64,000 nt of DNA from Anaerolineales bacterium UBA6092 (lineage in GTDB: Bacteria; Chloroflexota; Anaerolineae; Anaerolineales; UBA4823). Both the position numbers and the translations under genes were made by a program. The stretch is taken from assembly GCA_002428565.1 (NCBI GenBank), contig DIXA01000055.1:40436-104435 (forward strand), in the 5' to 3' direction. Under the pieces are notes generated by a model. That model saw only the letters and a list, made by a program, of their open reading frames with translations. It ran no database searches and was not told where the DNA came from. Shown one piece after another: positions 2,043 through 48,137 of this stretch; the stretch's first letter is position 1; each line of letters begins with the position of its first letter.

Positions 2043-2068
2043 CCGTAAGGTCCAGGGCGATTGCATCT
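2043..2068. repeat. Left target-site duplication (2043-2052, CCGTAAGGTC) plus left terminal inverted repeat (2053-2068)
   Basis: Read directly. 2053-2068 is the exact reverse complement of 3267-3282, and 2043-2052 is identical to 3283-3292. The boundary is ambiguous by 1 nt (a G on both sides). Confidence 0.9.
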
Positions 2069-32543: not shown

Positions 32544-32546
32544 GGA

Positions 32547-33686
32547 TCAGGCCTCCTCTGGGCTGCGCTCGATGCGCACCTGATAGTGCAGCAGGAAGTC
32601 GCTGGCGATCAGGCACACCAGTATGATGCCCTGGATCATCTTGGGGATGCCGGAGGGCTGGATCTCGCGTCCGGCAAGGATCAGCGCCCCGAACAAGATC
32701 GAAACGATGATCACCGCCAGCGGGTTCAGCTTCGCCAGCCAGGCAATGATGATGCCGGTGAAGCCATAACCCGGCGAGACGCGCTCTTGCAAACGGTGCA
32801 CCACCCCCGTCACCTCCGACATACCCGCCAGCCCCGCCAGCGCACCCGAGAGCATCATCACCAGGATCGTATTGCGGGCAATATTGATCCCGGCATAGCG
32901 GGCGTTCTGCGGGTTATCGCCAATCAGGCGGATCTCGTAGCCCCAGCGGCTGCGGTAAACGATGAACCACACCACCGCCGCCGCCACCAGACCAAAGATC
33001 AAGCCTAGGTGCGAGGTCAACCCGCGCAGCGCCGGGATCTGTTCCGCCAGGTCGGAGATGCGCGGCAGCCAGGCCGTTTTGGGGAACATCTCGCTCATCT
33101 GGAAACCGCCGTAAGACCAGACCGCAAAGATGAAATAATTGTTCCAGGCCACGGCAATGTAGTTCATCATCAAGGTGGAGATGATCTCATTGACATTGAA
33201 ACGGGCCTTCAAGAAGCCGGGGATGAGACCCCAGACTGCGCCTGCCACCATCCCCGCCACCATCATCACCGGGATAAAGATCCACGGCGAGGTATCGGCA
33301 GGCAGCACCGGCAGCAGCACAATGGCGCTGGCCCCAAACACGCCCAGGTAGAACTGTCCCTCCGCACCGATGTTCCACAGGCGCATGCGGAAAGCCACCG
33401 AGCAGGCCAAACCCACCAGAATGAGCGGCGTGGCTTTAACGATCGTATCCGAAAAGACGCCCCAACTGCCAAAAGAAGCCCGGGCGATGTGCGCATACGA
33501 GGCAAAGGGATTGGCGCCCGCCAGCGCCATGATGACCCCGCCCAAGATCAGCGCGACCACGATGGCGCCAAAAGAAATCATCACCGGGTACCAGCGCGGC
33601 GGCTGTACCAGGCGCTTTTCCAGGCGCACAGTAAAAGGCAGTCCCCACTTCCGGGGCGGAACAGGGGATTTGGTTGATTCTGTCAT
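32547..33686 (-). CDS. ABC transporter permease (BMP/nucleoside-type, first permease)
   Basis: 379 aa, polytopic. 4-nt overlap with the ATPase gene. Confidence 0.8.
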   Translation of the reverse strand: MTESTKSPVPPRKWGLPFTVRLEKRLVQPPRWYPVMISFGAIVVALILGGVIMALAGANPFASYAHIARASFGSWGVFSDTIVKATPLILVGLACSVAFRMRLWNIGAEGQFYLGVFGASAIVLLPVLPADTSPWIFIPVMMVAGMVAGAVWGLIPGFLKARFNVNEIISTLMMNYIAVAWNNYFIFAVWSYGGFQMSEMFPKTAWLPRISDLAEQIPALRGLTSHLGLIFGLVAAAVVWFIVYRSRWGYEIRLIGDNPQNARYAGINIARNTILVMMLSGALAGLAGMSEVTGVVHRLQERVSPGYGFTGIIIAWLAKLNPLAVIIVSILFGALILAGREIQPSGIPKMIQGIILVCLIASDFLLHYQVRIERSPEEA

Positions 33687-35266
33687 GATGGGCTTTCTCC
33701 TGAAATTTCATCCAGCGGTGTGCCGGTCATCATCAGGCCAATCTTCTCAAAACTATCTTGCAGGGCGCTGCCGCTCAACTCGCCCATGATCTTCCCCTCA
33801 TAGATCACCAAAACACGGTCACTGAGCGCCAACAATTCCTCCAGCTCCTCCGAGATCAGCAAAATGGCCGAACCGTTCTCGCGCTGGTCCAAGAGCAGGC
33901 GGTGCACCCCTTCGATGGCGCCCACGTCCAGGCCGCGGGTTGGCTGCACGGCGACCATCAGGGCGGGGTTGGCAGAAATCTCGCGCGCCAGGATGACGCG
34001 CTGCAAATTACCCCCCGAGAGCATACGCACGGGCGTCTCCATGGTGGGGGTGATGATATCGTAGGTTTCTTTCAAATCATTGGCAAAGCGGTTGGCTTCT
34101 ACCATATCCAGCACCCAGCCGTGCGCCAGGGGCGGCTGGCGGTATTTCTTGGTGATCAGGTTATCGGTCACGCTCAGGTTGGGGGCGGTGCCAACGTGCG
34201 TGCGGTCTTCGGGGACGTAAGAAACGCCGCGCTGGATGGCTACGGCAGCCGGGCGGTTGGTCAGGTCTTCCCCGTTCAGCAGCACCCGCCCCTTCAGGCA
34301 GGTGCGCAGCCCGGTGATCACCTGAGCCAGCTCGGTCTGCCCGTTCCCGGCAACCCCTGCCAGCCCCACGATCTCCCCGGTGCGCACGTTCAAAGACAGA
34401 TCACGCAGCGCCGGCAGGCCCTTATCGTTCTCTGCTTCCAGGTTCTCCAGCGAAAGCACCACCTCGCCCGCAGCCACCGGCTTCTTTTCCAATTGGAAGA
34501 GCACTTCACGTCCCACCATCAGGTTCGCCAGTTCCTGGCGGGAGGTTTCCGCGGTCTTGATCCCGGCCGCGGTCAGCACGCCCTTGCGCAGCACGGTCAC
34601 CCGGTCGGCAATCTCCATCACCTCTTGCAGTTTATGGCTGATGAAGATGACCGACTTACCCCCGGCAACCATCTTGCGCAGGGTATTGAACAACCCTTCG
34701 ATCTCCCGAGGCGCCAGGACGGCGGTTGGCTCATCCATGATCAGCACATCTGCGCCGCGGTAGAGCAGCTTCAGGATCTCCACACGCTGCTGCTCGCCCA
34801 CCGAGATCTGCCAGACCTTGGCGTTTGGGTCCACCTTCATCCCAAAGCGCTCGCCCACATCCGCTACGATCTGGTCATAATGCTTCAAGCGCAAGAAAAA
34901 GCGCGGCAACTCCATGCCCAGCAGCACATTCTCAGTAACCGTCTGCGAAGGGACGAGCATGAAGTGTTGGTGTACCATGCCAATGCCGGCCCGGATGGCA
35001 TCTCGCGGCGAGGAGAAGGAAACCGGCACACCTTTAACGCGGATCATCCCGGCGTCTGGGCGGTAAAGCCCACCCAGGATGTTCATCAGCGTACTCTTGC
35101 CAGCGCCGTTCTCGCCCAGCAAGGCATGGATCTCACCGGGGCGCAGGTCGAAATCCACATGATCATTCGCCAACACACCGGGGAATTTTTTGACAATGCC
35201 GCGCATTTCCACAACCCTGCTAAAAGCGGCTTCGGGATCGGAAACAGAAGGTGGAGATTGGATCAT
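33683..35266 (-). CDS. ABC transporter ATP-binding protein with duplicated ATPase domains
   Basis: First Walker A GENGAGKST, LSVGEQQRVEI signature and ILIMDEPTA. Second cassette with GVAGNGQ and LSGGNLQR. The track start is TTG 35278. ATG 35266 is preferred. Confidence 0.85.
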   Translation of the reverse strand: MIQSPPSVSDPEAAFSRVVEMRGIVKKFPGVLANDHVDFDLRPGEIHALLGENGAGKSTLMNILGGLYRPDAGMIRVKGVPVSFSSPRDAIRAGIGMVHQHFMLVPSQTVTENVLLGMELPRFFLRLKHYDQIVADVGERFGMKVDPNAKVWQISVGEQQRVEILKLLYRGADVLIMDEPTAVLAPREIEGLFNTLRKMVAGGKSVIFISHKLQEVMEIADRVTVLRKGVLTAAGIKTAETSRQELANLMVGREVLFQLEKKPVAAGEVVLSLENLEAENDKGLPALRDLSLNVRTGEIVGLAGVAGNGQTELAQVITGLRTCLKGRVLLNGEDLTNRPAAVAIQRGVSYVPEDRTHVGTAPNLSVTDNLITKKYRQPPLAHGWVLDMVEANRFANDLKETYDIITPTMETPVRMLSGGNLQRVILAREISANPALMVAVQPTRGLDVGAIEGVHRLLLDQRENGSAILLISEELEELLALSDRVLVIYEGKIMGELSGSALQDSFEKIGLMMTGTPLDEISGESPS

Positions 35267-35370
35267 CTTTGCACTCAATGTCTCACAGTCTCACAGCAAA
35301 AAACCAAGGGGCAGCCGGAGACCGGAACCGCCCCCCTGGCAGTTCCGGCCCCCGGCGAGGAAAGAAAGAT

Positions 35371-36564
35371 TTAGTTACCCGGCAGTTCAGCGGTGATCCC
35401 CTCAGCCCACCACTTCATGCAGAAGGTGCAGCCCAGCCCGTATTCAGGGAACTGGTCCAGGTCGGCCTGCGACAGCGCCTGGCCTTGCGGCACAAGCAGG
35501 TTGCCCTGGCTGTCATTGATGGGGCCAGTGAAGACATCGAAGCGGTCGAAATCGCCCACCAGCGAGGCAGCCACCAGGTCGCGTACTTCCTGAATCACTT
35601 CAGGCGGCAGCGAGGCGACACCCGAGGGAAGCGTCTGGCCTTCCATGAAGCCATACAGGCCCAGAGCGCCCGTCTCGGCGTCAAAGTAATCGAAGCCGGG
35701 TACGTAAGTGCCAGCGATGACCTTCTCGGTGATGGAGGCATATACCGGGCCCCAGTTCCAGTAGGGGGCGGTCAGGCAGCGCTCGACCTTGCAAGAGCCA
35801 TACCAGTCATACGTCACGCCCCATTTGCCCTTTTCCTGAGCCACATCGGCCACAGCGGGCGTATCCGCACCGGTGAAGACCACCTGCGCACCCGCGTCAA
35901 ACAGCGAGGCGGCGGCCTCTTTCTCGATGATGGGATCGTGCCAGGTGTTGATCCAGCGCACATCCATGGTGCATTCAGGGCAGGTTCGGCGCATGCCCAG
36001 GGCAATGGCGTTGCCCAGGCGCAGTTCTTCGGGGATGGGGAAGGTGGCCATGTAGCCCAGCTTGGGGTTGCCGTCGGCTTGAGCGCGCGCCCCAGCCAGC
36101 ATGCCTGCCAGGTACTTCATCACTTCCATGGCGCCAAACAGGTTGCCAAAGTTGGTGCCATTAGATTTGATGCCGCTGATGTGAACGAACATCGCCTCGG
36201 GGAACTCGCCCGCCACGATCTCCATGGGATCCATGAAGCCGTAGGAGGTGCCGATGATCAACTGGAAGCCTTTGCGCGCCAGGGCACGGAAGATCTGCTC
36301 TGAGTCGGCGCCTTCCGGCACGTTCTCTACATAAGCAATGTTCACGTCGGGTACGTTTTCCTTGACGTACAGCAGGCCTTCATAGTGCGCCTGCGACCAG
36401 CCGCCATCGTCATGCGGGCCGATCAGCACCATGGCTACGTTGAACTTACCGCTCTGCACATTGGGGATCTGGAACCCGCCCACTTCTTCAGGCCCGCAGG
36501 CCGTAAGAACCAGCGAGAGCACCAGAAGCACAGAGACAATTTGCCACACGATCTTGGAACGCAT
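35371..36564 (-). CDS. BMP-family (Med/PnrA-like) substrate-binding lipoprotein of the ABC transporter
   Basis: 397 aa. Lipoprotein signal VLLVLSLVLTAC. SD AGGAGG upstream of ATG 36564. Confidence 0.8.
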   Translation of the reverse strand: MRSKIVWQIVSVLLVLSLVLTACGPEEVGGFQIPNVQSGKFNVAMVLIGPHDDGGWSQAHYEGLLYVKENVPDVNIAYVENVPEGADSEQIFRALARKGFQLIIGTSYGFMDPMEIVAGEFPEAMFVHISGIKSNGTNFGNLFGAMEVMKYLAGMLAGARAQADGNPKLGYMATFPIPEELRLGNAIALGMRRTCPECTMDVRWINTWHDPIIEKEAAASLFDAGAQVVFTGADTPAVADVAQEKGKWGVTYDWYGSCKVERCLTAPYWNWGPVYASITEKVIAGTYVPGFDYFDAETGALGLYGFMEGQTLPSGVASLPPEVIQEVRDLVAASLVGDFDRFDVFTGPINDSQGNLLVPQGQALSQADLDQFPEYGLGCTFCMKWWAEGITAELPGN

Positions 36565-36753: not shown

Positions 36754-37707
36754 TTAAGGCACGATCAAAGTGCCGGTTTCGCCGCGCAATGCGCGGCCAA
36801 TATTTTCCGGATTGGTGATGAGCGCCTGCTTGCCGCCGTTGTCCAGGTACCACAGGATAGCCTGGATCTTGGGCGCCATGGAGCCTTTGGCAAAGTGCGT
36901 GCCTTCTGCCAGGTATGCCCTGGCTTCCGCGGCGGTCATGCGATCCAGCCACTTCTGCTCGGGCTTGCCAAAGTTGATCGCCACCTTCTCCACCGCGGTG
37001 GAGATGAGGAAGAGATCGGCGTTGATCTTGCTGGCGAGCAGGCTGCTGGCGTAATCCTTATCGATCACCGCCGCGGTGCCGACGTAATTGCCGCTGCCGT
37101 CATCCACCACCGGGATGCCGCCGCCGCCCACAGTGATCACCACCACACCCGCGTCCACCAGCGTGCGCACCGAATCAAGCTCCACTACCTCTTCGGGCAG
37201 GGGCGAGGCCACCACGCGCCGCCAGCCGCGCCCGGCATCTTCAACGATGTTCCAGCCCATCTCGGCCTCTCGGCGCTTGGCATCGGCTTCATCCATAAAG
37301 CCGCCAATGGGTTTGGAGGGGGTCTGGAAGGCTTTGTCGTTGCGGTTCACCAGCACCTGGGTGATCACGGTCGCCACGTTCTTCTGGATACCGCGGCGGT
37401 GCAGTTCATTTTGCAGCGTCTGCTGCAGGGCGTAACCGATGGCGCCCTGGCTGTCTGCGCCGCACACATCCAGCGGCACCTCGTGCATGCCCTCCACACG
37501 GGCGGCGATCTCGGAACGGCGCAGGATGAAGCCCACCTGCGGCCCGTTGCCGTGGCCAATGGCCACATCCCAGCCCGCCTCGATCATATCGGCGATGTGG
37601 AAGGTGGTTTCTTTGGCGGCCAGGTACTGATCTTCTACGGTCTGGTGGTTTTTATCTTTGATCAGCGAATTGCCGCCGATGGCAACCACTGCGATTTTCT
37701 TTTTCAT
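36754..37707 (-). CDS. arcC: Carbamate kinase
   Basis: ATG at 37707 (MKKKIAVVAIGGNSL) with GGAG upstream. The track start is farther upstream. Typical carbamate kinase architecture along the whole length. Confidence 0.9.
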   Translation of the reverse strand: MKKKIAVVAIGGNSLIKDKNHQTVEDQYLAAKETTFHIADMIEAGWDVAIGHGNGPQVGFILRRSEIAARVEGMHEVPLDVCGADSQGAIGYALQQTLQNELHRRGIQKNVATVITQVLVNRNDKAFQTPSKPIGGFMDEADAKRREAEMGWNIVEDAGRGWRRVVASPLPEEVVELDSVRTLVDAGVVVITVGGGGIPVVDDGSGNYVGTAAVIDKDYASSLLASKINADLFLISTAVEKVAINFGKPEQKWLDRMTAAEARAYLAEGTHFAKGSMAPKIQAILWYLDNGGKQALITNPENIGRALRGETGTLIVP

Positions 37708-37742
37708 CGTCAATTCTCCATTAAATATCAAATTTTTCTGTC

Positions 37743-37788
37743 GTAGTAGCGACTTCAGTCGCTGAGGGACGGCTGAAGCCGTACCTAC
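37743..37788. repeat. Hairpin cluster GTAG-[AGCGAC-TTCA-GTCGCT]-[ACGGC-TGAA-GCCGT]-CTAC, related to 29274-29341
   Basis: Read directly. Two tetraloop hairpins closed by a 4-bp outer helix, between the carbamoyltransferase stop and the carbamate kinase start. Confidence 0.55.
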
Positions 37789-37800
37789 AAAGTGCTATCT

Positions 37801-38781
37801 TTAGCGCATGGTCAGCGCCATAACGGCCTTCTGGGCGTGCAGGCGGTTCTCGGCCTCATCGTACACCACCGAGTTCGGGCCGTCCATCACGCCATCGGTC
37901 ACCTCAATGTTGCGGTCGGCGGGCAGCGGGTGCATATAGATGGCATCCGATTTCGCCAGGGCCATCTTGCGCTCGTCGGTGATCCAGTGGCTGTATTTCT
38001 TGATGATCTTGGCGCCTTCATCCGCATCGGGAGTGTGCACCATCGCGCCCCACGACTTGGCGTAGACGATATCGGCATCTTTGAAAGCCTCTTCCATATC
38101 GTTCACCACTTCAAAGCCCACACCGAACTTGCGCGCCTGCTCCTGGGCCTGATCCATGATCTCTGGCATCAGGCGGAACTCTGGCGGGTGCGCCAGCACC
38201 ACATCCAGGCCAAAGCGCGGCATCTGCAAGATCAGCGACTGCGGCACGCTCATCGGCTTCTGGTAAGAGGCGGCATACGCCCAGGAGACCACCATCTTCT
38301 TGCGGCGCAGATCGCGGCCCTTCTTCTCGATGATGGTCATCAGGTCAGCCAGGCACTGGAAGGGGTGGTAGACATCGCATTGCATGTTCAGCACCGGCAC
38401 GCGCGAAGCCTTCGCCACGGCGTTCAGGTAACCGTTGCCAATGGCCCAATCACAATGGCGGATGGCAATGCCATCATAATAGCGCCCAAAGATCTCGCCG
38501 ATCTCTTTGGGGGTATCGCCGTGGGAGATCTGGGTGCTCTTGCTCTCGATAAAAGCGCCGTGCCCGCCCAACTGAGCGATACCAGCCTCAAACGAGCCAC
38601 GCGTGCGCGTGCTGGAGAAGAAGAACAGCATCGCCAACACCTTGTCGCGCAGGTAGGCATGCGGCTCGCCCAGGGCGCGCTTGCGCTTCAGGTCAAAGGC
38701 CACATCCAATACGGTTTCCACTTCCTCCTTCGAAAAATCCAAATCGCCAATCAAATCTCGGTTTCTTAAGTCTGTTTGCAT
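37801..38781 (-). CDS. YgeW-like (knotted-type) carbamoyltransferase of the OTCase/ATCase superfamily
   Basis: 326 aa. SSTRTR carbamoyl-P motif, MQCDVYHPFQCLADL (HPxQ), VSWAYAASYQKPMSVPQS (close to the YgeW segment TWAYSPSYGKPLSVPQ as I recall it), and YMHPLPADR in place of HCLP. Confidence 0.75.
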   Translation of the reverse strand: MQTDLRNRDLIGDLDFSKEEVETVLDVAFDLKRKRALGEPHAYLRDKVLAMLFFFSSTRTRGSFEAGIAQLGGHGAFIESKSTQISHGDTPKEIGEIFGRYYDGIAIRHCDWAIGNGYLNAVAKASRVPVLNMQCDVYHPFQCLADLMTIIEKKGRDLRRKKMVVSWAYAASYQKPMSVPQSLILQMPRFGLDVVLAHPPEFRLMPEIMDQAQEQARKFGVGFEVVNDMEEAFKDADIVYAKSWGAMVHTPDADEGAKIIKKYSHWITDERKMALAKSDAIYMHPLPADRNIEVTDGVMDGPNSVVYDEAENRLHAQKAVMALTMR

Positions 38782-38811
38782 TTTTACTTTCTCCTTTGTG
38801 AACGAGTGATT

Positions 38812-40866
38812 CTAAGGGTTACAGCCAAGCTCCGCATAAAGCGCAGCAATGACCACATCCCTGTCAGAACTGGGTTGGGTTGCTTCAGCCAGGCGCCCCC
38901 ACACCAGGCACAGCGGCACGCTCATCTCCGGCGAGACGATCTGGGCCAGCCGCGTTTGCTCTTGCGCTTGCTGCCAGGCGCCGGTGTGGGCATAACCCTC
39001 GATGAAGGGGACGCGTTCCAGCGGGTCGTTGGGATAATCGCCCAGGGCAAAAGCCTGCTCGCCCAGGGCCACCACCTGCTCCCAATCACCCTGCTGGCGG
39101 GCCAGGTCGGCCTTCTCGAAATAATAGCACCAACCGTGCGCTGGTTCCGCGCCGTAAAAATCGGGCAGGATGCGCTGGCTGCCTGCGGGCGGGTCGGGCA
39201 AGATATACTGGGGGTCTGAAAGCACGGCAGCCTGCTGCATCATCACCGATAAGAGCGGCGACTCGGTATCCAGATTGGGGTTCAGCACGCGCAGGCAGGC
39301 GGGCGGCTCGTAATACACTGCCACCACCTGCGAGGTGCTGCCGTGGAAGGCTGCCGCCAGGTAATCCACATCGATCGGCAGGCCGCTGGTCAGGCTGGAA
39401 AGGCTCCCCCCCAGCCGCCGCTCTGGGTAGAGCAGCAGCAGGGACATCTCTTGCGAGGTGTTTTCAGAGGCGTAGATCCAGTTCAGCGGCGCGGTGAGCG
39501 AGTTATCGGTGTAATAATCCAGCGCGCCGGGTTGATTCATCATCACGATCGTGCCGGGCTCCAGGGCAGGCATGCGCCAGGCCATCTGCCAGAAGAAGCG
39601 CTCCTGCGCCACCCAGGCACGGCGGTAATCGTTGGCAACGGTGAAATGTTTGCCCGCTGCCAGGCTCACCAGCAGCACCAGCAGGCCCCAGCGCAGCCAG
39701 GCGCGGCCCGGCAGGGCTGCCAGCAGCCCGGCAACCAGCAGGCTGGCGCCAAACAGGAACGGCAGGGTGAAGCGGTCCATGGCAAAGGCCAGTTGCGGCA
39801 CAATGCCGATCAGCCAGATCGAGCCGCCGCCCGCCAGGCAGGCCAGCAGGCCCAGGAGCAGCGCCGGTTTGACCCAGGGCGGGCGCTGCGCGAGCATGTT
39901 CAGATCGCGCCGCGCCAGGTAGAAAGCTCCCGCCAGCAGCGCTGCCGCCGCCAGGACCACCAGCACCCCCAGCAGAATGGTGCGCATCCCCGCCGTCTGC
40001 ACATCGGGCAGGGCAAAAACGCTGGCCCAGGCGGCCACAATGGTCACCCACAGCGATTGGAGGATGCTCCACAGCAGCGCCAGGATGGCCTGCAGCGGCT
40101 GCTCGCCCAAATCCTGAAAGAAGCTCAGCTCGTAATTCTCGGTCTGATAGTTAAAGAAGAACAACCGCCACACCATCACACCGGCAAACAAAGCCAGGTA
40201 AGGCCAGGCGCTTTGCAGCGTGCGCCGCAGCCGCAAACGCCTCTCTGGCTGCTGGTCTGTGAGGGCAAGGTAGATCAACAGCGGGCGCAGCAGCTCGATC
40301 AGGAAGAAATATTCCATCGCCAGCAGATGATAGGCTGAGAGCAGCAGCGCCAGGAGGTGCAAAGCCCAGCCGCGGCGCCCCAGGCGGGCGGCTTTGACGC
40401 TCAACCACAACGAAAAGATGAAGATCGTCAGAACAATGAAAAAATGGCTGTAGAGCAATGCTATGGCCTGCTGCATAAAGCCCGGATACACCAGGAAGAG
40501 CAGGCTGCCCCAGGCGGCTGCCTGAGGATGAGACGGCCACACGGCGCGCAGCAAAAGCCAAAACGCCGCCGCGCTGGCCCAACGCCAGAACAAAGCCAGG
40601 AGCTGCCAGGCCAGCAGGTTCTGCCCGAATAGCGGGGTGGTGATCTCGTACAGCAGCCCCCACACCGGGCGATTGGTGGAGAAATAGCGCGCCAGGCCCT
40701 GCGGCCCAAACTGATTGGCAATCCAGGACATGGGATAATCGTCCCAATAAAAGCCCAACCAGGGGATCACCAGGCCGTAAGCCAGCACGGCCACCGCCAA
40801 GAGCAGCAGCGGGTGGATGCCCGCAGGCAGGCGCAGCCCGCCAGCCCGGCGCAAGAACTTAGCCAT
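38812..40866 (-). CDS. Polytopic membrane protein, GT-C-fold glycosyltransferase-like (ArnT/PMT/GT39-like) with a soluble C-terminal domain
   Basis: About 684 aa from ATG 40866, which overlaps the GT2 stop by 8 nt (the track start is farther upstream). At least 10 predicted TM helices and an early FYWDDYP loop. Confidence 0.6.
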   Translation of the reverse strand: MAKFLRRAGGLRLPAGIHPLLLLAVAVLAYGLVIPWLGFYWDDYPMSWIANQFGPQGLARYFSTNRPVWGLLYEITTPLFGQNLLAWQLLALFWRWASAAAFWLLLRAVWPSHPQAAAWGSLLFLVYPGFMQQAIALLYSHFFIVLTIFIFSLWLSVKAARLGRRGWALHLLALLLSAYHLLAMEYFFLIELLRPLLIYLALTDQQPERRLRLRRTLQSAWPYLALFAGVMVWRLFFFNYQTENYELSFFQDLGEQPLQAILALLWSILQSLWVTIVAAWASVFALPDVQTAGMRTILLGVLVVLAAAALLAGAFYLARRDLNMLAQRPPWVKPALLLGLLACLAGGGSIWLIGIVPQLAFAMDRFTLPFLFGASLLVAGLLAALPGRAWLRWGLLVLLVSLAAGKHFTVANDYRRAWVAQERFFWQMAWRMPALEPGTIVMMNQPGALDYYTDNSLTAPLNWIYASENTSQEMSLLLLYPERRLGGSLSSLTSGLPIDVDYLAAAFHGSTSQVVAVYYEPPACLRVLNPNLDTESPLLSVMMQQAAVLSDPQYILPDPPAGSQRILPDFYGAEPAHGWCYYFEKADLARQQGDWEQVVALGEQAFALGDYPNDPLERVPFIEGYAHTGAWQQAQEQTRLAQIVSPEMSVPLCLVWGRLAEATQPSSDRDVVIAALYAELGCNP

Positions 40867-41857
40867 TGCGGGCCTCGCTTTGGCTTGCAGGGGCGGCATC
40901 TTCCGGCCAGGTGCGCCGCACCAGGTAGAGCGGGCGGCGCTTCACTTCCTGAAAGATATAGCCCACGTAAATGCCAATAAAGCCCATGGTCACCATCAGG
41001 CTGCCGCCTACCACCAGCAGCACGAACATCAGCGAGGACCAGCCCGGAGCCAGCCCCGCCTGCTGCCCGGTGACCCAAAAACTGAGCACATAGATCATCT
41101 CTGCCAGCGCCAGCACCAGAAACAGCGCCCCCACCGAAATGCCAAAATACAGCGGGGCCAGGGAGAAGGAGAAGACAGCGTCCATCGCCAGGCGGAGCAT
41201 CTTGCCCAGCGAGTACTTGCTCTCTCCCGCCAGGCGCGCCGGCGGCTGGTACGGCAGGATCACCGTACGGTAGCCCATCCAGGCCACCATGCCGCGCAGC
41301 AGGCGGTGATATTCGCGCATGCCGCGCAGCGAGCGCACCACCGAGCGGGTGAGCAGGCGGAAATCTGCCGAGCCCGGCAAGATGTGCGTATCGCCCACGC
41401 GGTTGATCAAGCGGTAGAAGAGCGCCGAGGTCCAGCGCTTGAACGCCGAGACCTGGCGCTCTTCGATCCGCTGCGTTAATACGATATCATAGCCAGCCTG
41501 CGCCTGTTGGAGCATCTCACCGATCAGCGCCGGGGGGTGCTGGCCATCGCCATCCATGGTGATGACGCAGTCGCCCTCGGCCTGGTCCAGCCCGGCAGTC
41601 AGCGCGGCCTGGTGGCCAAAGTTGCGGCTTAATTCGATGATCCTCATGCGCGGCTCGCCCTGGGCGATCTGCGCCAGCACCTGCGCCGTGTTGTCGGTCG
41701 AGCCGTCGTTCACGTACCAGAAAGTGAACGCGTGCGGCAGACCGTCCACCGCCTGGCACAACTGCTGGTGAAAGGCGATCACGGCTTCTGCCTCGTTGTA
41801 CACCGGCACAACGATGGCAACTTGCAGCGCGGGTAAACCCGGAACAGGCTGGATCAA
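40859..41857 (-). CDS. GT2 glycosyltransferase, polyprenyl-phosphate sugar synthase type (GtrB-like), second copy
   Basis: 332 aa. VVPVYNE, YVNDGSTDNT, ITMDGDGQHPP, two C-terminal TM helices. The track start codon is TTG, so the start is uncertain. Confidence 0.8.
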   Translation of the reverse strand: MIQPVPGLPALQVAIVVPVYNEAEAVIAFHQQLCQAVDGLPHAFTFWYVNDGSTDNTAQVLAQIAQGEPRMRIIELSRNFGHQAALTAGLDQAEGDCVITMDGDGQHPPALIGEMLQQAQAGYDIVLTQRIEERQVSAFKRWTSALFYRLINRVGDTHILPGSADFRLLTRSVVRSLRGMREYHRLLRGMVAWMGYRTVILPYQPPARLAGESKYSLGKMLRLAMDAVFSFSLAPLYFGISVGALFLVLALAEMIYVLSFWVTGQQAGLAPGWSSLMFVLLVVGGSLMVTMGFIGIYVGYIFQEVKRRPLYLVRRTWPEDAAPASQSEARNG

Positions 41858-41865
41858 CGGATGGT

Positions 41866-42819
41866 TTACTCCATGGCTCCCAGCACCAACGCCAGCAGCG
41901 CCATGCGCATCACCACGCCGTTGAAGGCTTCCTGCCAGTAGCGCGACCAGCGGGTGATATCCACATCCACCGGCACCTCGTCCATGCGCGGCAGCGAGTG
42001 CAGCAGGATGGCATCGGAGCGGGCCTTGGTGGAGAGCAGTTCGCGGGTGATCTTGTAGTTGGCGGGGGTCAGGCCCAGGTCGCCCTTGCGCTCATCGCGC
42101 GACTTGGTGTAATCGGGCTGCACCACCGGCTCCACCAGGATCACATCGGCATCGGCAATGGCCTGCTCCACGTGCTCCACCTCGCGGAAGTCTACGCTGA
42201 AGCCCTTCAGCTCCTCTTTGAACTCGGGCGTCAGGCCCATATCGGGCGGGGAGACAAAGGTGATGGGGCAGTCAAACTGCGAGAGGGCATAGCCCAGCGA
42301 GTGCATGGTGCGCATGCGCATATCGCCCACCGCCAGCCAGTTCAAGCCGTCGATGGTGCCCTTCTCCTTCAGCACGGTGTACAGGTCGGTGAGGATCTGG
42401 GTGGGGTGTTCGCCCCAGCCGTCGCCGCCGTTGATGATGGGAATGCTGGCCCATTTGGCGGCTTCGTGCGGCGCGCCCTGCTGGAAATGGCGCATAACGA
42501 TCACATCGCCGTAGTATTCCAGCATCTTGACCGTGTCTTTGATCGACTCCTGGTAGAAGTCGCCGGCGCGGGTCATCTTGGCATCCGAGAAACCGGTCAC
42601 ATGCCCGCCCAGGCGGTGCATGGCGGCCTCGTGGGCCAGGCGGGTGCGGGTGCTGGGCTGGTAGAAAGCCGTCACCAGCGTTTTCTCTGCCAGCAGGTCA
42701 CTGTTGCGGCGGGTGGCAGCAATAGGCTCCAATTCCGCGGCTACATCGAACACATGGAAAAACTCGTTCCGTTCAAAATCCTTCAGAGAAAGAATGTCAC
42801 GACCAGCAAAACTACGCAT
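41866..42819 (-). CDS. Aspartate-carbamoyltransferase-like (PyrB paralogue) carbamoyltransferase with a divergent second-substrate pocket
   Basis: 317 aa. PSTRTR, GEHPTQILTDL, HSLPRMDEVPVDVD and a C-terminus very close to E. coli PyrB. However, the PyrB segments GKKGE and MTRVQKER are replaced by GDFYQE and VEPVVQPD. Confidence 0.75.
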   Translation of the reverse strand: MRSFAGRDILSLKDFERNEFFHVFDVAAELEPIAATRRNSDLLAEKTLVTAFYQPSTRTRLAHEAAMHRLGGHVTGFSDAKMTRAGDFYQESIKDTVKMLEYYGDVIVMRHFQQGAPHEAAKWASIPIINGGDGWGEHPTQILTDLYTVLKEKGTIDGLNWLAVGDMRMRTMHSLGYALSQFDCPITFVSPPDMGLTPEFKEELKGFSVDFREVEHVEQAIADADVILVEPVVQPDYTKSRDERKGDLGLTPANYKITRELLSTKARSDAILLHSLPRMDEVPVDVDITRWSRYWQEAFNGVVMRMALLALVLGAME

Positions 42820-42904
42820 ACCAAACTCCTTTTCTAGAATCTTGTTTTTTTTTGAGAGGCCAAAACACCCTCCACGGGGTGCTTTGGCCTCAAGTCAGCA
42901 CTTT

Positions 42905-44122
42905 TTATTTGATTTTTTCGCTCAAAATCTTGGGGAACAGGGCGTAAAATTCCGTCGCGGCCACCACATCGTCAAGCGGCACCTGCTCGTCATCGCGATG
43001 AGCAAACTTCTCGTCGCCGGGGCCAAACCCAATGCTGGGGATGCCCGCCTTGCCCGCCCAATAGGTGCCGTTGGTGGAGAAGTCCCACTTATCCAGGGAG
43101 CGCTTCTCACCCCATAACGTCTCAACCACGCTCTGCCCCACCTGCACCAAGGGGTGGTCATCTTCCAGCAGCCAGGCCGGGTAATACTTGGCCACCGGGA
43201 AGACGAAGCCGGTGTAGGAGGGCTCATCGTAGAACAACTCTTCCACCTTGATCTCCTCCTGCAGGTAATCGGGGATCAGCCCCTTGATCTGCGCGATGAC
43301 TTCATCATGCGGCTCGTTGGAGGTGATGCGGCGATCAAGGTAGATGGTGAACTGATCGGGCACGGCGTTGAGCGAGGCCGTGCGCACCGAGACATCCGTC
43401 ACAGCAATGGAAGGGTGCCCCTGCACCGGGTGCGACCCCATGCCAAAGCGGAAGCGGCGGTCCAGCTCGCGGATCTGGGTGATGATAGCCATCATCTTAT
43501 ACACGGCGTTATCGCCCAGGTAGTGCGAGGCGGCGTGCGCCGAGCGCCCAGAGGCGGTGATCTTCAACTCGATGCGCCCCTTGTGGCCGCGATCAACGTG
43601 CATCTTGGTCGGCTCGCCAATGACCACATAATCCGGGCGCACTTTGGGATCCACCTCCACAAAGGCGTTGGGAGCAAGGCCGTCACACCACTCTTCCATG
43701 TTGCCAAAGTAGTAGGCGGTGATGCCGTCCAGCCAGCCCAAATCCCTGGCGAACGCCAGCCCATACACCATGCCCGGCGTGGAGCCTTTTTCGTCGCAGG
43801 CGCCGCGCGCATAAAAGATGCCGTTCTCCACCTTGCCAATGAAGGGGTCCCACTGCCAGGTGTCTGGGTCGGCCAGGCCCACCGTGTCGATATGCGAGTC
43901 GTAGACGATGACGCGCTTGCCAGAGCCGATGCGCCCGAGAATATTGCCCATCTTGTCAAAGCGCACTTCGTCAAAGCCCAGCTGGTTCATCTCTGCGGCA
44001 ATGCGCTCGCCCACATCTTTCAACTGCCCCTCCATGCTGGGAATGGCGCAGATGTCGCGCATGAACTGGATGATATTGGCGCGGTTCTCTTCCACTTTTT
44101 GCTTTAGTTTTTGAATTTCCAT
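42905..44122 (-). CDS. YgeY-family M20 peptidase/amidohydrolase
   Basis: 405 aa. FMRDICAIPSMEG, DSHIDTVG, ARGACDEKG, DKWDFSTNG and GIPSIGFGPG match my recollection of E. coli YgeY (DKWTFSTNG, GIPVIGFGPG). Confidence 0.8.
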   Translation of the reverse strand: MEIQKLKQKVEENRANIIQFMRDICAIPSMEGQLKDVGERIAAEMNQLGFDEVRFDKMGNILGRIGSGKRVIVYDSHIDTVGLADPDTWQWDPFIGKVENGIFYARGACDEKGSTPGMVYGLAFARDLGWLDGITAYYFGNMEEWCDGLAPNAFVEVDPKVRPDYVVIGEPTKMHVDRGHKGRIELKITASGRSAHAASHYLGDNAVYKMMAIITQIRELDRRFRFGMGSHPVQGHPSIAVTDVSVRTASLNAVPDQFTIYLDRRITSNEPHDEVIAQIKGLIPDYLQEEIKVEELFYDEPSYTGFVFPVAKYYPAWLLEDDHPLVQVGQSVVETLWGEKRSLDKWDFSTNGTYWAGKAGIPSIGFGPGDEKFAHRDDEQVPLDDVVAATEFYALFPKILSEKIK

Positions 44123-44162
44123 TGCAGATCTCCCATCGAGGTATTTTTAGCCTTGCCCGGCC

Positions 44163-44879
44163 CTAAACCCGCCGGACCACATGGAACCGGAAATAGCCCG
44201 GCAGAAAATAAGAATATGAGTAATCGACCACGCGGCCGTTGCCGGCGTAGAGATAGGCCACAAACCGCAGGAGCACGTCGCCGCGCTGGATATGCATGGC
44301 TCGGGCCACGTCCACCGAAGCCGTGACGGCGTTGATCTCGCAGCGAGAGGAGGCCAACGGCGGATTGCCCTGCTTGAGCAGCAGATCCAGCACCGAGCCG
44401 GTAAAATCCACCTCGAGCGCTTTGGGAGAGAGCACGTCCTCCGGCAGAGTATCCACCAGGTAGGCCGCGGAATGATCCTGGGCCATGATCACGCGCCGCA
44501 CGCAGATCACGCCGCTTTCCAGTTCGATATTCAAAGCCTGGGCTTCTTCTTCCGTGGGGGTGCGGGGGTCAATGTGCAGCTCGCCCAACGAGACGGGCAG
44601 GCCAATGTGCCGGGCCAGCGTTTCGATGCTTTGCAGCACTTCCAGGCCGCTGTCGATCACCTGGGTGGGGTGCGTGACATAGGTGCCAGAACCCTGCCGG
44701 CGGTAGATCATGCCCTGGGTCTCGAAGGCACGCATGGCCTCGCGCAGGGTGGCCCGCGAGACGCTCATGCGGCGGGCCAGTTCTGGCTCGGAGGGCAGGC
44801 GCTCGCCCGGGGCCGAATCGGCGATCAGCCGGGCCAGGTTTTCGTGCAAACGCTGAGAGGTTGAGAGAACGCTCACCAT
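44163..44879 (-). CDS. GntR-family transcriptional regulator (HutC/FarR-type, UTRA effector domain)
   Basis: 238 aa. LPSEPELARRMSVSRATLREAMRAFETQGMIYRRQGSGTYV winged helix, with a UTRA-like C-terminal half. Confidence 0.85.
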   Translation of the reverse strand: MVSVLSTSQRLHENLARLIADSAPGERLPSEPELARRMSVSRATLREAMRAFETQGMIYRRQGSGTYVTHPTQVIDSGLEVLQSIETLARHIGLPVSLGELHIDPRTPTEEEAQALNIELESGVICVRRVIMAQDHSAAYLVDTLPEDVLSPKALEVDFTGSVLDLLLKQGNPPLASSRCEINAVTASVDVARAMHIQRGDVLLRFVAYLYAGNGRVVDYSYSYFLPGYFRFHVVRRV

Positions 44880-44897
44880 GATTGACCGCTGATCGGT

Positions 44898-46691
44898 TCA
44901 GCCCTCCAACACAGGTACGAACGTAAAGCGGGTGGTATCCACCAGCCCCAGGTCTGAGATGCGCAGCTCAGGGATCACCACCAAAGCCAGCAGGCTGAGC
45001 TGCATATTGGGGTTATTCAATGTGCAGCCGCAAGCCCGGAAGCCTTCCAGCACGGTGGCGGCCTTGCCGGCCACGGTCTGAGCGTTTTCGTCAGACATCA
45101 GCCCGGCAATGGGCAGCTGCACCTGGCCGATCACCTGGCCCTGGCGCACCACCACCTGCCCGCCGCCGGCCTTGGCCAGCTCATTGGCAGCCTGGGCCAT
45201 ATCGGCTTCGCTGGTGCCCACCACGATCAGGTGGTGGCTGTCGTGCGCCACGGTGGTGCCGATGGCGCAGGGGACGGTGAAGCCAAAGCCATGCGCCAGT
45301 CCCACCGTCACCTTGCCCGTGCCCTGGTGACGCTCCACCACCGCCAGTTTGACCAGGTCATGCGCTACATCCACGCCCACCTGCCCATCCACAGCCTGCA
45401 CTTCAACGCGTAGATGACGGGTGGGAGCCTGGTTTTCGATCACGCTAATCACGTTGGCGGTTAGTTTGCCATCCCGCGGCGCGGCCAGGCGGAAATCTTC
45501 GGCCGTGAGCGGCTTGCCCAGGTGCACCGAATGCAGCGCCCAATCGGGGTATGGATAGTGCGGCAGGTTGAGCAGCATGCGGCCGTTCTCGGCAGCCAGG
45601 GCGCCGCGGGCAATGACCATCTCTGGCTTGAGGGCGGTCAGGTCACTGAGGATGAGCACGTCGGCATAGCGCCCGGGGGCGATCATGCCCACCTCGCGCG
45701 TGACGCCGAAGTGATCGGCGGTGTTGATCGTGGCCATCTGGATAGCGGTGATGGGCGGCACACCCTGTGCAATGGCCACCCGCACGGCACGGTTGATATG
45801 CCCCTCATTGACCAGCGTCTCAGAGTGCAGGTCATCGGTGCACAGGATCAAGCGCCTCGAGTCCAGGCCCATCTCCGTGATAATACGCACCTGCTCAGCC
45901 ACATCTTTCCAGCCGGAGCCGTAGCGGATCATGGGCTTCATGCCCTGGCGCAGGCGCGCCACGGTATCTTCCAGGCGGGTGCCCTCATGGTCATCTTCCG
46001 CGCCGCCCGCCACGTAGCCGTGGAAGGGCAGGCCCAGGTCGGGGGTGGCGTAATGCCCGCCAATCACCTTGCCCGCGGCGCGCGTCTCGCCCATCTCGGC
46101 GTGCATCTTCTCGTCGCCCAGGAACACGCCGGGGAAGTTCATCACCTCGCCCAGGCCGATGATGCCCGGCCACTGCAGCGCCTCGGCCACTTCTGCCGGG
46201 CCAATGCTCGCTCCGGGCGTCTCCAGCCCAGGGGCGGAGGGCACGCAGGAGGGCACCTGCACCCACACGTGGATCGGCTGGACAGCGGCCTCATCCACCA
46301 TCAGGCGCACGCCGCGCAGCCCAAACACATTGGCAATCTCGTGCGGGTCCACGAACATGCCCGTGGTGCCATGCGGCACGGCAGCACGCACAAACTCCGT
46401 CACCGTCAGCATGCCCGATTCGACGTGCATGTGCCCGTCCAGCAGCCCGGGGCAGAGGTAACGCCCGGCAGCGTCGATCACCTTCGTCTTTTCGCCAATG
46501 GCGTGCGAAGCGTCTGGCCCCACATAGGCGATGCGCTCGCCCAGGATGGCAATATCGGTATGGGGGATGATCTCACCCGATTGCACGCACACCCAGCGGC
46601 CGTCGCGGATCACCAGATCGGCGGGGGCGCGGCCCATGGCCACATCCACCAGGGAGCGAGTCAGCGCAGCATAATCAAATTGGGTCATCAT
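44898..46691 (-). CDS. ade: Adenine deaminase (amidohydrolase superfamily, long AdeC/Ade type)
   Basis: 597 aa. ADLVIRDGRWV, PGLLDGHMHVESGMLT, GHY..., with the C-terminal domain typical of the roughly 600-aa adenine deaminases. Confidence 0.8.
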   Translation of the reverse strand: MMTQFDYAALTRSLVDVAMGRAPADLVIRDGRWVCVQSGEIIPHTDIAILGERIAYVGPDASHAIGEKTKVIDAAGRYLCPGLLDGHMHVESGMLTVTEFVRAAVPHGTTGMFVDPHEIANVFGLRGVRLMVDEAAVQPIHVWVQVPSCVPSAPGLETPGASIGPAEVAEALQWPGIIGLGEVMNFPGVFLGDEKMHAEMGETRAAGKVIGGHYATPDLGLPFHGYVAGGAEDDHEGTRLEDTVARLRQGMKPMIRYGSGWKDVAEQVRIITEMGLDSRRLILCTDDLHSETLVNEGHINRAVRVAIAQGVPPITAIQMATINTADHFGVTREVGMIAPGRYADVLILSDLTALKPEMVIARGALAAENGRMLLNLPHYPYPDWALHSVHLGKPLTAEDFRLAAPRDGKLTANVISVIENQAPTRHLRVEVQAVDGQVGVDVAHDLVKLAVVERHQGTGKVTVGLAHGFGFTVPCAIGTTVAHDSHHLIVVGTSEADMAQAANELAKAGGGQVVVRQGQVIGQVQLPIAGLMSDENAQTVAGKAATVLEGFRACGCTLNNPNMQLSLLALVVIPELRISDLGLVDTTRFTFVPVLEG

Positions 46692-48076
46692 CTCACCTCC
46701 GTTAATCTTCGGGCAGCCCGGTTATGTGCTTCGATCAATCGCGGCAAGTCCACGGTCACAGGCTGGCCTTCCTTCACCACCATCTTGCCGCCCACCACGG
46801 TGTAATCGGCCCGCACCGGGGCGCAGAACACCAGCGCCGCCACAGGGTCATGCAGCGCACCGGCAAAATCCAGCCGGTTCAGGTTCACGGCGAAGAAATC
46901 GGCGCATTTACCCGGCTGCAGCGAGCCCAGGTCCGCGCGCCCCAGCACCGCGGCGCTGCCGCGCGTGGCAATTTCCAGCGCCTGGCGGGCGGTCATCAGG
47001 GGCGGGGCCGCTTCGCCCGAAAGCGAAGCCCCCATCAGCCCAGCGCGCACGCGTGAGGCCAGCATGGCCTGGCGCACTTCCTCCAGCAGGTTCGAGCCGT
47101 CGTTGCTGGCTGAGCCATCCACACCCAGGCCCACTTTGACGCCCGCGGTGAGCATCTCCAGGATGGGGGCAATGCCCGAGGCCAGGCGCATGTTGGAGGT
47201 GGGGCAGTGCGCCACACCGCAGCCTGTGCGGGCATACAGGTCGATCTCTTCCTTGTTCACATGCACAGAATGAGCAAACCACACGTCCGGCCCGATCCAA
47301 TTCACAATATCCATGTATTCCACCGGGCGGTAGCCAAACAACTCCAGGCAGAAGGCTTCTTCATCCTGCGTCTCTGCCAGGTGAGTGTGCAGGCGCACGC
47401 CGTACTCACGCGCCAGCGAAGCGCTGGCGCGCATCAGGTCTGAGGTCACGCTGAAGGGAGAGCAGGGCGCCAGCACAATCTGCAGCATCGATCCGGGGTT
47501 CGGGTCGTGGTACTGCTCGATGAGGCGCTGCGAATCCTTGAGGATGAAGGCCTCATCTTCCACCACATGGTCAGGCGGCAAGCCGCCCTTGCTTTCACCC
47601 CGGCTCATCGAACCGCGCGAGGCGTGCAGGCGCAGGCCCACTTCGCGCGCCGATTCGATCTCGTCATCCAGCCGTGAGTCGTTGGGAAAGATGTACAGGT
47701 GATCCGAGGCGGTGGTGCAGCCCGAAAGAGCCAGCTCCACCAGCGCCGTCTTGGTGGATATGCGGATATCCTCCGGCTGCATGCGCCCCCAGATGGGGTA
47801 AAGCGTTTTCAGCCAGTTGAACAGGTTGGCATCCTGCGCCGCGGGCACCGCCCGCGTCAGCGTCTGGTAGAAGTGGTGATGGGTATTGATCAGCCCGGGC
47901 AAGAGCACATGCCCGCGCAGGTCCAGCACCTCATCGGCCTGGGCGGGCAGGTCCACGCTCGGGCCAACCTGCTCGATCATGCCATCGCATACAAAAAGAC
48001 CACCGCCGGGGATTTCTCGGCGCTGGTCATCCATGGTCACTAACACATCGGCGTTACGGACAAGGAGAGTTTTCAT
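46688..48076 (-). CDS. 8-oxoguanine-deaminase-like amidohydrolase (TRZ/ATZ / SsnA-related)
   Basis: ATG at 48076 (MKTLLVRNADVLVTMDD). The track ORF's N-terminal extension is rejected. LINTHHHFYQTLTR metal-binding motif, HLAET, VGLGVDGSASND. The stop overlaps the ade start (ATGA). Confidence 0.75.
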   Translation of the reverse strand: MKTLLVRNADVLVTMDDQRREIPGGGLFVCDGMIEQVGPSVDLPAQADEVLDLRGHVLLPGLINTHHHFYQTLTRAVPAAQDANLFNWLKTLYPIWGRMQPEDIRISTKTALVELALSGCTTASDHLYIFPNDSRLDDEIESAREVGLRLHASRGSMSRGESKGGLPPDHVVEDEAFILKDSQRLIEQYHDPNPGSMLQIVLAPCSPFSVTSDLMRASASLAREYGVRLHTHLAETQDEEAFCLELFGYRPVEYMDIVNWIGPDVWFAHSVHVNKEEIDLYARTGCGVAHCPTSNMRLASGIAPILEMLTAGVKVGLGVDGSASNDGSNLLEEVRQAMLASRVRAGLMGASLSGEAAPPLMTARQALEIATRGSAAVLGRADLGSLQPGKCADFFAVNLNRLDFAGALHDPVAALVFCAPVRADYTVVGGKMVVKEGQPVTVDLPRLIEAHNRAARRLTEVR

Positions 48077-48121
48077 CGGCTGTCGCTTTCTGGCAAGCCA
48101 TTGGTTTTTTGGGGGGACGAA

Positions 48122-48132: not shown

Positions 48133-48137
48133 GCGAT

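Follow-up and report, generated by a model that had tools for sequence, protein, structure and literature searches.

The 64,000-nucleotide stretch of DNA from Anaerolineales bacterium UBA6092 analysed here (contig DIXA01000055.1; hereafter the window, GC about 61%) carries a block of nine co-directional genes, all on the minus strand between positions 48,076 and 36,754, which includes two different carbamoyltransferases (CT1 and CT2) and a carbamate kinase. This block probably represents the lower, ATP-yielding half of reductive (2,8-dioxopurine) purine and urate degradation together with the steps that feed into the pathway, in the form seen in Chloroflexota and Actinomycetota, and arranged as an operon or set of operons controlled by a GntR regulator. 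The evidence comes from gene identities, family tests, conserved synteny and a link to uricolytic genes. More tentatively, at a confidence somewhat short of even, we propose that CT1 has a new activity, that of a 2-ureido-3-aminopropionate carbamoyltransferase (or one acting on the alpha-ureido group of 2,3-diureidopropionate), that together with CT2 and the kinase it would give two ATP per urate, and that the pathway would end through a new pair of pyridoxal phosphate (PLP) enzymes and a 178-aa protein instead of YgeX.

CT1 resembles aspartate carbamoyltransferase (ATCase). It narrowly passes one ATCase model (TIGR00670, 244.5 bits against a cut-off of 236.95) and fails another (NF002032, 216.3 against 263). 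An alignment was made of CT1, E. coli PyrB and 87 representatives obtained from a search of 1.84 billion cluster representatives. CT1 retains the ATCase fold and the carbamoyl-phosphate site (STRTR, R105, HPTQ and R167) and lacks the aspartate-binding residues K84, R229 and Q231: the K84 loop reads GFYQ and contains an insertion, EPVVQ replaces TRxQ, and the HPLP motif is changed to HSLP. This signature is identical in all 43 orthologues, which come from several phyla including Chloroflexota and Actinomycetota; the genuine ATCases of the same alignment all have xKG, GRT, TRxQK and HPLP. In a small neighbour-joining tree with limited sampling, CT1 is placed among pseudo-ATCases and outside the genuine ATCase clade, which has a bootstrap value of 100 (E. 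coli, Pyrococcus abyssi and the Anaerolineae sequences P0483 and P0391).

Pseudo-ATCases were described by Barba et al. (2013, PMC4016543), who identified RxQ as an ATCase-specific motif. Like these proteins, CT1 keeps STRT and HPTQ, has lost RxQ, reads HSLP at the third motif, where the class has H[ST]LP or HSLP, and stands in a catabolic context away from pyr genes. We conclude that CT1 is a pseudo-ATCase of this class and not an aspartate carbamoyltransferase. Subgroup 1 of the class contains Rxyl_2847, a ureidoglycine carbamoyltransferase (UGTCase; PMC4016543), a type from which CT1 differs (HSLP and EPVVQ versus HPLA and AIA). In subgroup 2, the pseudo-ATCase of Nocardioides sp. JS614, which was left without an assigned function, adjoins a ygeW homologue, xdhABC and hyuA (PMC4016543). 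CT1 shares with this subgroup a position beside a YgeW-type transferase, xdh and hyuA, and its Nocardioides orthologue (locus L044 of the comparative set described below) is 68% identical. At the RxQ position CT1, as aligned here, reads EPVVQ[PA], which does not exactly match the published subgroup 2 motif GX[SC]; its assignment to a subgroup therefore rests on HSLP and context. In E. coli ATCase, R167 touches the alpha-carboxylate of the substrate, and K84, R229 and Q231 touch the aspartate carboxylates, chiefly the beta one. With R167 kept and the other three residues lost, CT1 would suit an alpha-ureido acid with an amine or ureide side chain, not a carboxylate.

CT2 falls short of the YgeW models (TIGR03316 and NF005538; 185.4 against 500 and 193.7 against 453) and of the cut-offs for ornithine carbamoyltransferase (OTC; 259.1 against 306) and acetylornithine carbamoyltransferase (AOTC or AOTCase; 254.7 against 288); a further ornithine or acetylornithine model gave 254 against 280.85. 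The ornithine motifs DxxxSMG, HCLP and GDGNNV are absent, the corresponding positions reading AKSWGAM, HPLP and WAYAASYQKP, and the YgeW loops SWAYxxSYxKPxSVPQ, QIxHG[DE]T, NxQCDxxHPxQ and VY[AP]KSW are present. With 326 aa against 396 aa, CT2 is devoid of the YgeW insertions and C-terminal extension, and it is 34% identical to E. coli YgeW. In the neighbour-joining tree its clade joins E. coli YgeW with a bootstrap of 80, within the AOTCase/YgeW group. Judged by these loops and this placement, CT2 is a compact YgeW-like carbamoyltransferase of the AOTCase/YgeW group. The label YgeW-like given to it in an earlier reading of the sequence alone (hereafter the sequence-only reading) thus holds for the loops and the grouping, and is not borne out by the model cut-offs and overall identity. 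YgeW and AOTCase are knotted carbamoyltransferases, with a trefoil knot in the fold. An AlphaFold2 (AF2) model of CT2 (predicted local distance difference test, pLDDT, 80) was also tried as a family test and set aside: Foldseek against the PDB returned OTC and AOTC alike (template-modelling scores 0.80-0.87), the generic fold did not discriminate between them, and the relevant loops were of low confidence.

Public annotations name the two proteins aspartate and ornithine carbamoyltransferase, and one could suppose an anabolic pair of aspartate and ornithine (or acyl-ornithine) transferases, with the kinase supplying carbamoyl phosphate as in the carbamate-kinase-like enzyme of Pyrococcus. The housekeeping-like conservation of CT1 and CT2 across Anaerolineales (86-96%) and the narrow pass of CT1 on TIGR00670 speak for this; the loss of K84, R229 and Q231 from CT1 and of DxxxSMG and HCLP from CT2, together with a context of purine catabolism rather than pyr or arg genes, leave it almost no credence. 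Moreover, genuine PyrB with full canonical motifs occurs in Thermoflexales, Caldilineales, Bellilinea and Anaerolineaceae, so that Anaerolineae have a separate enzyme, the coexistence of CT1 orthologues with genuine pyrB being shown at family and class level only. The sequence-only reading had taken neither transferase for anabolic, and had named as the contrary case two anabolic transferases that were the only such genes in the genome; our results agree with it, as CT1 lies outside the ATCase clade that contains Anaerolineae PyrB. An arginine or agmatine deiminase pathway was likewise considered and rejected, with no deiminase, no ornithine or putrescine motifs and a purine-catabolic context. 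As a separate observation, the canonical-motif PyrB genes of Anaerolineae and Thermoflexales (L090, which is ENA k141_1247195, and L079) are not in a pyr operon; they lie directly upstream of xanthine-dehydrogenase-family genes, beside an aspartate-aminotransferase-like gene and an IclR regulator, and may reflect a separate catabolic use of true ATCase.

Scanning one genome per GTDB species with the pseudo-ATCase alignment yielded 43 loci with CT1 orthologues (65-94% identical), and two more were reached via CT2, giving 45 loci (numbered with the prefix L), in which open reading frames (ORFs) were called with a caller based on GC content at third codon positions. They come from Anaerolineales, Caldilineae, Thermoflexus, Limnocylindria, Acidimicrobiia, Nocardioides, Streptosporangiaceae and metagenome-assembled genomes (MAGs) labelled Phycisphaerae and Eisenbacteria. 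Loci L014 and L035, from MAGs titled Verrucomicrobiia and 'uncultured archaeon', have CT1 orthologues at 70-88% and Anaerolineales-like neighbours; their labels probably reflect binning contamination and not true taxonomic spread. CT2 was found in 35 of the 45 loci and the carbamate kinase in 32. A threonine-synthase-like (ThrC-like) PLP enzyme is present in 20, a distant CysK-like PLP enzyme (PALP2) in 19, a GntR gene, kept upstream of CT1, in 20, an 8-oxoguanine-deaminase-type gene in 19 and xanthine dehydrogenase (Xdh) genes in 17. The counts are 9 for HyuA, 8 each for SsnA and YgeY, 2 for YgfK and none for YgeX or true YgeW. Of the 37 loci extending far enough, 27 have CT2 directly after CT1, and the gene order of the block recurs in more than ten other Anaerolineales genomes. 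It follows from these counts that the conserved core is CT1, CT2 and the kinase with the two PLP enzymes, and not the triad of YgeW, YgeY and carbamate kinase on which the sequence-only reading had built the block.

The link to uricolytic genes is seen in the same loci. Among the 21 with at least 8 kb on each side, 13 contain HyuA, SsnA, Xdh or YgfK. A coenzyme F420-dependent luciferase-like (LLM) oxidoreductase lies between SsnA and CT1 in L044, L045 and L052, SsnA is flanked by F420 genes in Thermoflexus, and 8-oxoguanine-deaminase-type orthologues are directly beside HyuA-CT1 in L033, L041, L047 and L051. A second scan, seeded on an Anaerolineales HyuA, gave the best 80 metagenome loci, 39 of them of at least 9 kb. 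Upstream of HyuA in these 39 are PALP2 (28 loci), a family 2 glycosyltransferase (GT2; 22) and the ThrC-like enzyme (20); an XdhB-like gene follows HyuA in six, accompanied by an XdhD-like gene in four, SsnA in two and npdG in two. Locus L099 reads GntR-CT1-CT2-carbamate kinase-ThrC-like-GT2-PALP2-HyuA. Taken over L099, L114, L121, L124 and L151, the two halves are contiguous in relatives, in the order CT1-CT2-carbamate kinase-(ABC importer)-ThrC-like-GT2-PALP2-178-aa protein-HyuA-XdhB-XdhD-SsnA-npdG.

In UBA6092 the upper half lies at the start of the window, where the sequence-only reading had correctly placed a xanthine-dehydrogenase-family operon: a FAD subunit and the beginning of a molybdenum subunit occupy positions 1911 to 1. 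The JGI contig TOLCLC_10000451 (sample 3300002498, from a toluene-degrading methanogenic culture) matches window positions 1 to 11911 exactly and continues past position 1, where it encodes the remainder of the XdhD-like subunit (fused Fe-S/Mo, 1091 aa; 789 against 830 on the selenium-dependent xanthine dehydrogenase model, slightly under), SsnA, npdG, cofE, cofD, cofC and an F420-dependent LLM oxidoreductase. SsnA, about 3.3 kb beyond position 1, passes its model (NF005540, 531 against 444) and is 37% identical to E. coli SsnA; the LLM oxidoreductase shares 61-65% identity with its counterparts next to CT1 in Actinomycetota loci. An F420 variant of the reductive uricolytic cluster has been noted in Chloroflexota (PMC12507026), and the combination that marks such a cluster, an XdhD/YgfM-type enzyme with an F420 LLM reductase, is by sequence present here. 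The connection drawn earlier between the Xdh operon and the block is thereby supported, with the XdhD-SsnA-F420 genes continuing there and the halves contiguous in relatives. The window therefore holds the canonical Anaerolineales supercluster, split by about 26 kb of unrelated genes and with HyuA missing from its slot. Two independent assemblies of this organism, JGI TOLCLC_10003857 and ENA k141_366522, are each interrupted at around 20.5 kb in the window, which suggests a repeat or strain-variable junction there.

In the 2,8-dioxopurine route, urate undergoes two successive reductions, the first to 2,8-dioxopurine, and SsnA and HyuA then open the rings to give 2,3-diureidopropionate; one ureido group is phosphorolysed by YgeW, with YqeA making ATP from the carbamoyl phosphate, the other is hydrolysed by YgeY, and YgeX turns diaminopropionate into pyruvate (bioRxiv 10.1101/2025.04.24.650524; PMC12507026). 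Since this pathway was solved in E. coli and Clostridium in 2025, the statement of the sequence-only reading that the chemistry is not predictable from sequence no longer holds. Its assignment of the block to anaerobic purine and urate degradation is sustained by the family tests, the SsnA, XdhD and F420 genes and the HyuA-linked synteny; its suggestion of two ureido substrates or a branched path stands in so far as 2,3-diureidopropionate carries two ureido groups.

In the pathway that we propose, a Bmp-family ATP-binding cassette (ABC) importer would bring in bases or nucleosides, and adenine deaminase and the 8-oxoguanine-deaminase-type enzyme would convert aminopurines to oxopurines. The upper operon (YgfM-like and XdhD-like subunits, SsnA, and the F420 LLM reductase in place of YgfK) would reduce urate and open the pyrimidine ring, and a hydantoinase, HyuA in relatives, would yield 2,3-diureidopropionate. 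CT2, the presumed counterpart of YgeW, would phosphorolyse one ureido group and CT1 the other, probably the alpha (2-) group, replacing or supplementing YgeY, which would be a hydrolytic alternative for one ureido step in this lineage. If CT1 cleaves the second group, two carbamoyl phosphates feed the kinase, and the yield could reach two ATP per urate, against one in E. coli and none in Clostridioides difficile. In place of YgeX, disposal of the three-carbon (C3) diamino acid would fall to the ThrC-like and CysK-like PLP enzymes together with the 178-aa protein.

The two transferases could instead belong to two ureide pathways that share one kinase, with CT2 and YgeY acting on urate and CT1 on an unrelated ureide, such as allantoate (like the UGTCase of Rubrobacter), N-carbamoyl-aspartate from orotate or beta-ureidopropionate from pyrimidines. 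CT1 is of ATCase type, the other pseudo-ATCase subgroup has been assigned to allantoate phosphorolysis beside a carbamate kinase, and with YgeY encoded here diureidopropionate could in principle be processed by a single transferase. We nevertheless find this unlikely: the adjacent CT1-CT2 pair, counted above, usually occurs without YgeY, the loci contain no allantoinase, uricase, dihydroorotase or dihydropyrimidine dehydrogenase, the CT1 motifs are not those of UGTCase, and the neighbours are SsnA, HyuA, XdhD and the F420 reductase.

Several observations weigh against the proposed reductive pathway with double phosphorolysis. Neither the window nor the 10 kb past its left edge contains HyuA. 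The slot that HyuA occupies in relatives, after the 178-aa gene, is filled here by an unrelated 278-aa ORF and then folP; the pathway may thus be incomplete in this genome, unless HyuA is encoded elsewhere. The upper operon is separated from the block by about 26 kb and lies behind an ISAs1 transposase. The substrates proposed for CT1 and CT2 are predicted from context and active-site residues only, the presence of YgeY in the block makes a second phosphorolytic step look redundant, and which ureido group E. coli YgeW cleaves first is itself disputed. Since the PLP enzymes are not YgeX-like (56 against 276), the end of the pathway may bypass diaminopropionate. Finally, the CT1, CT2, kinase and PLP genes have recurrent neighbours in the Actinomycetota loci L029, L038, L040 and L049, and in L021, namely genes for a class I/II aminotransferase, a D-2-hydroxyacid dehydrogenase and a glutamate dehydrogenase, which hints that the C3 product may be transaminated and reduced instead of simply deaminated.

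The missing HyuA, the distant upper operon beside a transposase and two foreign-looking genes between CT1 and CT2 would also fit an insertion-sequence-associated rearrangement that split the cluster and removed HyuA, leaving a lower module that is decaying or serves imported ureides only. This we regard as distinctly improbable. All genes of the module are intact, with 88-96% identity to their counterparts in relatives, and the putative operator described below is conserved. Many relatives have the upper operon elsewhere, Xdh adjoining in only 6 of the 39 HyuA-seeded loci, and HyuA could lie in the unsampled part of the genome. A HyuA search directed at the same metagenome sample returned no TOLCLC contig among the best 80.

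The features of the window are listed in the following table.

Table. Features of the block and of its surroundings in the window (scores in bits, against model cut-offs where given).
Feature	Coordinates	Strand	Family match or remark
8-oxoguanine-deaminase-family amidohydrolase	46688..48076	-	NF006055, 695.5 vs 532
Adenine deaminase	44898..46691	-	TIGR01178, 489.2 vs 472.5; Adenine_deam_C domain
GntR regulator with UTRA effector domain (HutC subfamily)	44163..44879	-	PF00392 + PF07702
YgeY-family M20 hydrolase	42905..44122	-	TIGR03526, 444 vs 321.5; NF009555, 422.7 vs 321
CT1, ATCase-like carbamoyltransferase	41866..42819	-	TIGR00670, narrow pass
GT2 glycosyltransferase (polyprenyl-phosphate sugar transferase type, PgfS/ArnC-like)	40859..41857/41809	-	PF00535
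Polytopic membrane protein, 684-695 aa	38812..40899/40866	-	no family match
CT2, second carbamoyltransferase	37801..38781	-	under every curated family cut-off
Carbamate kinase	36754..37707	-	TIGR00746, 370.7 vs 358.25; NF009007, 408.6 vs 266
Bmp-family ABC importer	31575..36564	-	PF02608, PF00005 x2, PF02653 x2
Importer, binding protein	36564..35371	-	
Importer, ATPase	35206..33683	-	
Importer, permeases	33686..32547; 32543..31575	-	
ThrC-like PLP enzyme	30307..31578	-	threonine synthase models, just under cut-off
Second GT2 glycosyltransferase	29357..30310	-	PgfS, 272.5 vs 500
PALP2, 487-aa distant CysK-like PLP enzyme	27751..29214	-	PF00291, 37; cysK, 79.8 vs 351
178-aa protein	27122..27658	-	no family match
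278-aa ORF	26283..27119	-	no family match; weak squalene-cyclase-N/HEAT-like matches, E about 0.2-0.6
FolP dihydropteroate synthase	25393..26268	-	Sul4 model, 402 vs 600
ISAs1-family transposase	2068..3207	-	directly upstream of Xdh/SsnA operon
YgfM/XdhB-like FAD subunit	1036..1911	-	
N-terminus of fused Fe-S/Mo XdhD-like subunit	1..1033	-	runs past window edge

All seven genes named in the sequence-only reading were recovered, co-directional and on the minus strand at the positions it gave, as was the BMP-type transporter that it placed after them. The ATGA coupling of the amidohydrolase and adenine deaminase genes is visible in the overlap sequence, where the start of the latter overlaps the stop codon of the former. 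The genes are not as tightly spaced as was said: CT1 and CT2 lie 3.05 kb apart, because the GT2 and membrane-protein genes between them had been overlooked. Nor does the functional cluster end at 36,754; it extends down to about 27,122. The window matches metagenome contigs of the JGI sample and of related assemblies, and close homologues are annotated Anaerolineales, Anaerolineae or Longilinea. The carbamate kinase is 51% identical to E. coli YqeA and the YgeY-family hydrolase 38% identical to E. coli YgeY. The block amidohydrolase was tried as SsnA and rejected (144 against 444 on the SsnA model, 25% identity to the E. coli protein). No homologue of hyuA, ygeX, ygfK or ssnA was found inside the window, which bears out the earlier remark that recognisable hyuA and ygeX are lacking. 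Apart from folD, which adjoins the block, no genes of the formiminoglycine route are evident, and an Rfam scan of the whole window gave no riboswitch or other RNA family.

The first GT2 (253.7 on PgfS and 157.8 on ArnC, each under cut-off; 316 aa in the JGI gene call) and the membrane protein between CT1 and CT2 resemble an envelope-glycosylation pair inside a catabolic operon, and the membrane protein is probably the partner of the adjoining GT2. Its homologues (43-45% identical) occupy the space between CT1 and CT2 in L024 and follow the kinase in L012. The membrane protein and the 178-aa and 278-aa ORFs had no match in Pfam and NCBIfam searches, even at E<=1. In L033, L036 and L050 a 565-572 aa Amidohydro_3 protein, of the Pfam family of C. 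difficile UacY, stands directly upstream of CT1; hydrolytic and phosphorolytic ureido-cleaving enzymes may co-exist there.

Downstream of the kinase, the ABC importer has the same position in L007, L010, L012, L013, L016, L024 and L026. The ThrC-like enzyme scores 251.8 against 303 and 166 against 167.1 on threonine synthase models. On the diaminopropionate ammonia-lyase (YgeX) model it gives the best score and fails (56 against 276); it is a conserved member of the cluster and a candidate for part of the YgeX role. The best PDB match of PALP2 reaches 56 bits. The earlier statement that ygeX is missing thus holds for YgeX itself, and leaves out the ThrC-like and CysK-like enzymes that stand in the conserved cluster. 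Across Anaerolineales and Thermoflexus the second GT2 keeps its place exactly between the ThrC-like and CysK-like genes, in eight genome loci (L007, L013, L016, L025, L026, L041, L047 and L051) and in the 22 metagenome loci counted above. Homologues of the 178-aa protein (53-77% identical) lie directly upstream of HyuA, between PALP2 and HyuA, in 57 of the 80 HyuA-seeded loci, and are also present in L041, L047 and L051; its single-sequence AF2 model has a pLDDT of 36.7, too low to be of use. The 278-aa ORF that follows it here has no homologue in any fetched locus. The next gene, folP, scores far higher on the Sul4 model than on Sul1-3, placing a chromosomal Chloroflexota folP close to the Sul4 lineage; a folP gene also follows HyuA in L142 and L152.

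Upstream of the first gene of the block, the palindrome TTGTCWGACAA occurs twice (48,121-48,133 and 48,166-48,178), 45 bp apart. In 11 other Anaerolineales loci this 11-mer is also found close upstream of the orthologous deaminase gene. Such palindromes are typical binding sites of GntR/HutC-type regulators, and we infer from this arrangement that the sequence is probably the operator of the GntR regulator of the cluster. A promoter-like site is present at 48,166-48,138, and a hairpin with a 16-bp stem and a T-run at 48,189-48,155. The interval that separates folD from the block (48,155-48,260, minus strand) contains two strong hairpins. The second is a perfect 16+3+16 palindrome that holds one putative operator copy and is followed by a T-run; it could be both the folD terminator and a binding site for the regulator.

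Some elements of this picture were already known: the pathway frame (2025), the pairing of a pseudo-ATCase with YgeW in one genome (2013, with no function) and the F420 reductase swap (2025). In the literature that we searched, we found no description of the constant CT1-CT2-kinase trio or its wide spread, of the replacement of YgeX by two PLP enzymes and a small protein, or of a likely double phosphorolysis. It was not until 2025 that the anaerobic urate pathway was worked out, and then for gut Proteobacteria and Firmicutes alone; the present cluster shows how environmental Chloroflexota and Actinomycetota build it, with about half of the enzymes exchanged. It offers a concrete, testable function for the pseudo-ATCase family, routinely mis-annotated as PyrB since at least 2013, and likewise for the compact YgeW-like family that now carries the annotation ornithine carbamoyltransferase. 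Phosphorolysis of both ureido groups, if it occurs, would double the energy yield of purine fermentation, which bears on slow-growing anaerobes such as Anaerolineae living on necromass nucleobases. The cluster is also a clean system in which to ask which ureido group enzymes of the YgeW type attack. Handling of the two groups by two transferase lineages would, if true, also settle the disputed order and regiochemistry of cleavage.

The cluster of E. coli and Clostridium sporogenes comprises xdhD-ygfM, ygfK, ssnA, hyuA, ygeW, ygeY, ygeX and yqeA (bioRxiv 10.1101/2025.04.24.650524; PMC12507026). Like it, the organism studied here has XdhD-like and YgfM-like proteins, a true SsnA, a YgeY-family hydrolase, a YgeW-related transferase and a YqeA-like kinase, and the clusters of relatives include HyuA and, in some cases, YgfK. 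In contrast to the E. coli cluster, CT1 is a constant second transferase of ATCase lineage and YgeY is optional; the place of YgeX appears to be taken by the ThrC-like and CysK-like PLP enzymes with the 178-aa protein, and that of YgfK by the F420 LLM reductase with its F420 genes; and the deaminases, GntR regulator, ABC importer and GT2 genes are built in. The C. difficile variant, with the UacX reductase and the UacY amidohydrolase, proceeds by hydrolysis and draws no ATP from carbamoyl phosphate (PMC12507026). In both variants the reductase and the enzymes that cleave the ureido groups have been exchanged in a lineage-specific way, within one and the same pathway frame. The direction is opposite, in that the Anaerolineales cluster appears to use phosphorolysis twice. 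As in the arginine and agmatine deiminase pathways, which pair a catabolic OTCase or PTCase with carbamate kinase, phosphorolysis of a ureido group would give carbamoyl phosphate, from which carbamate kinase would make ATP.

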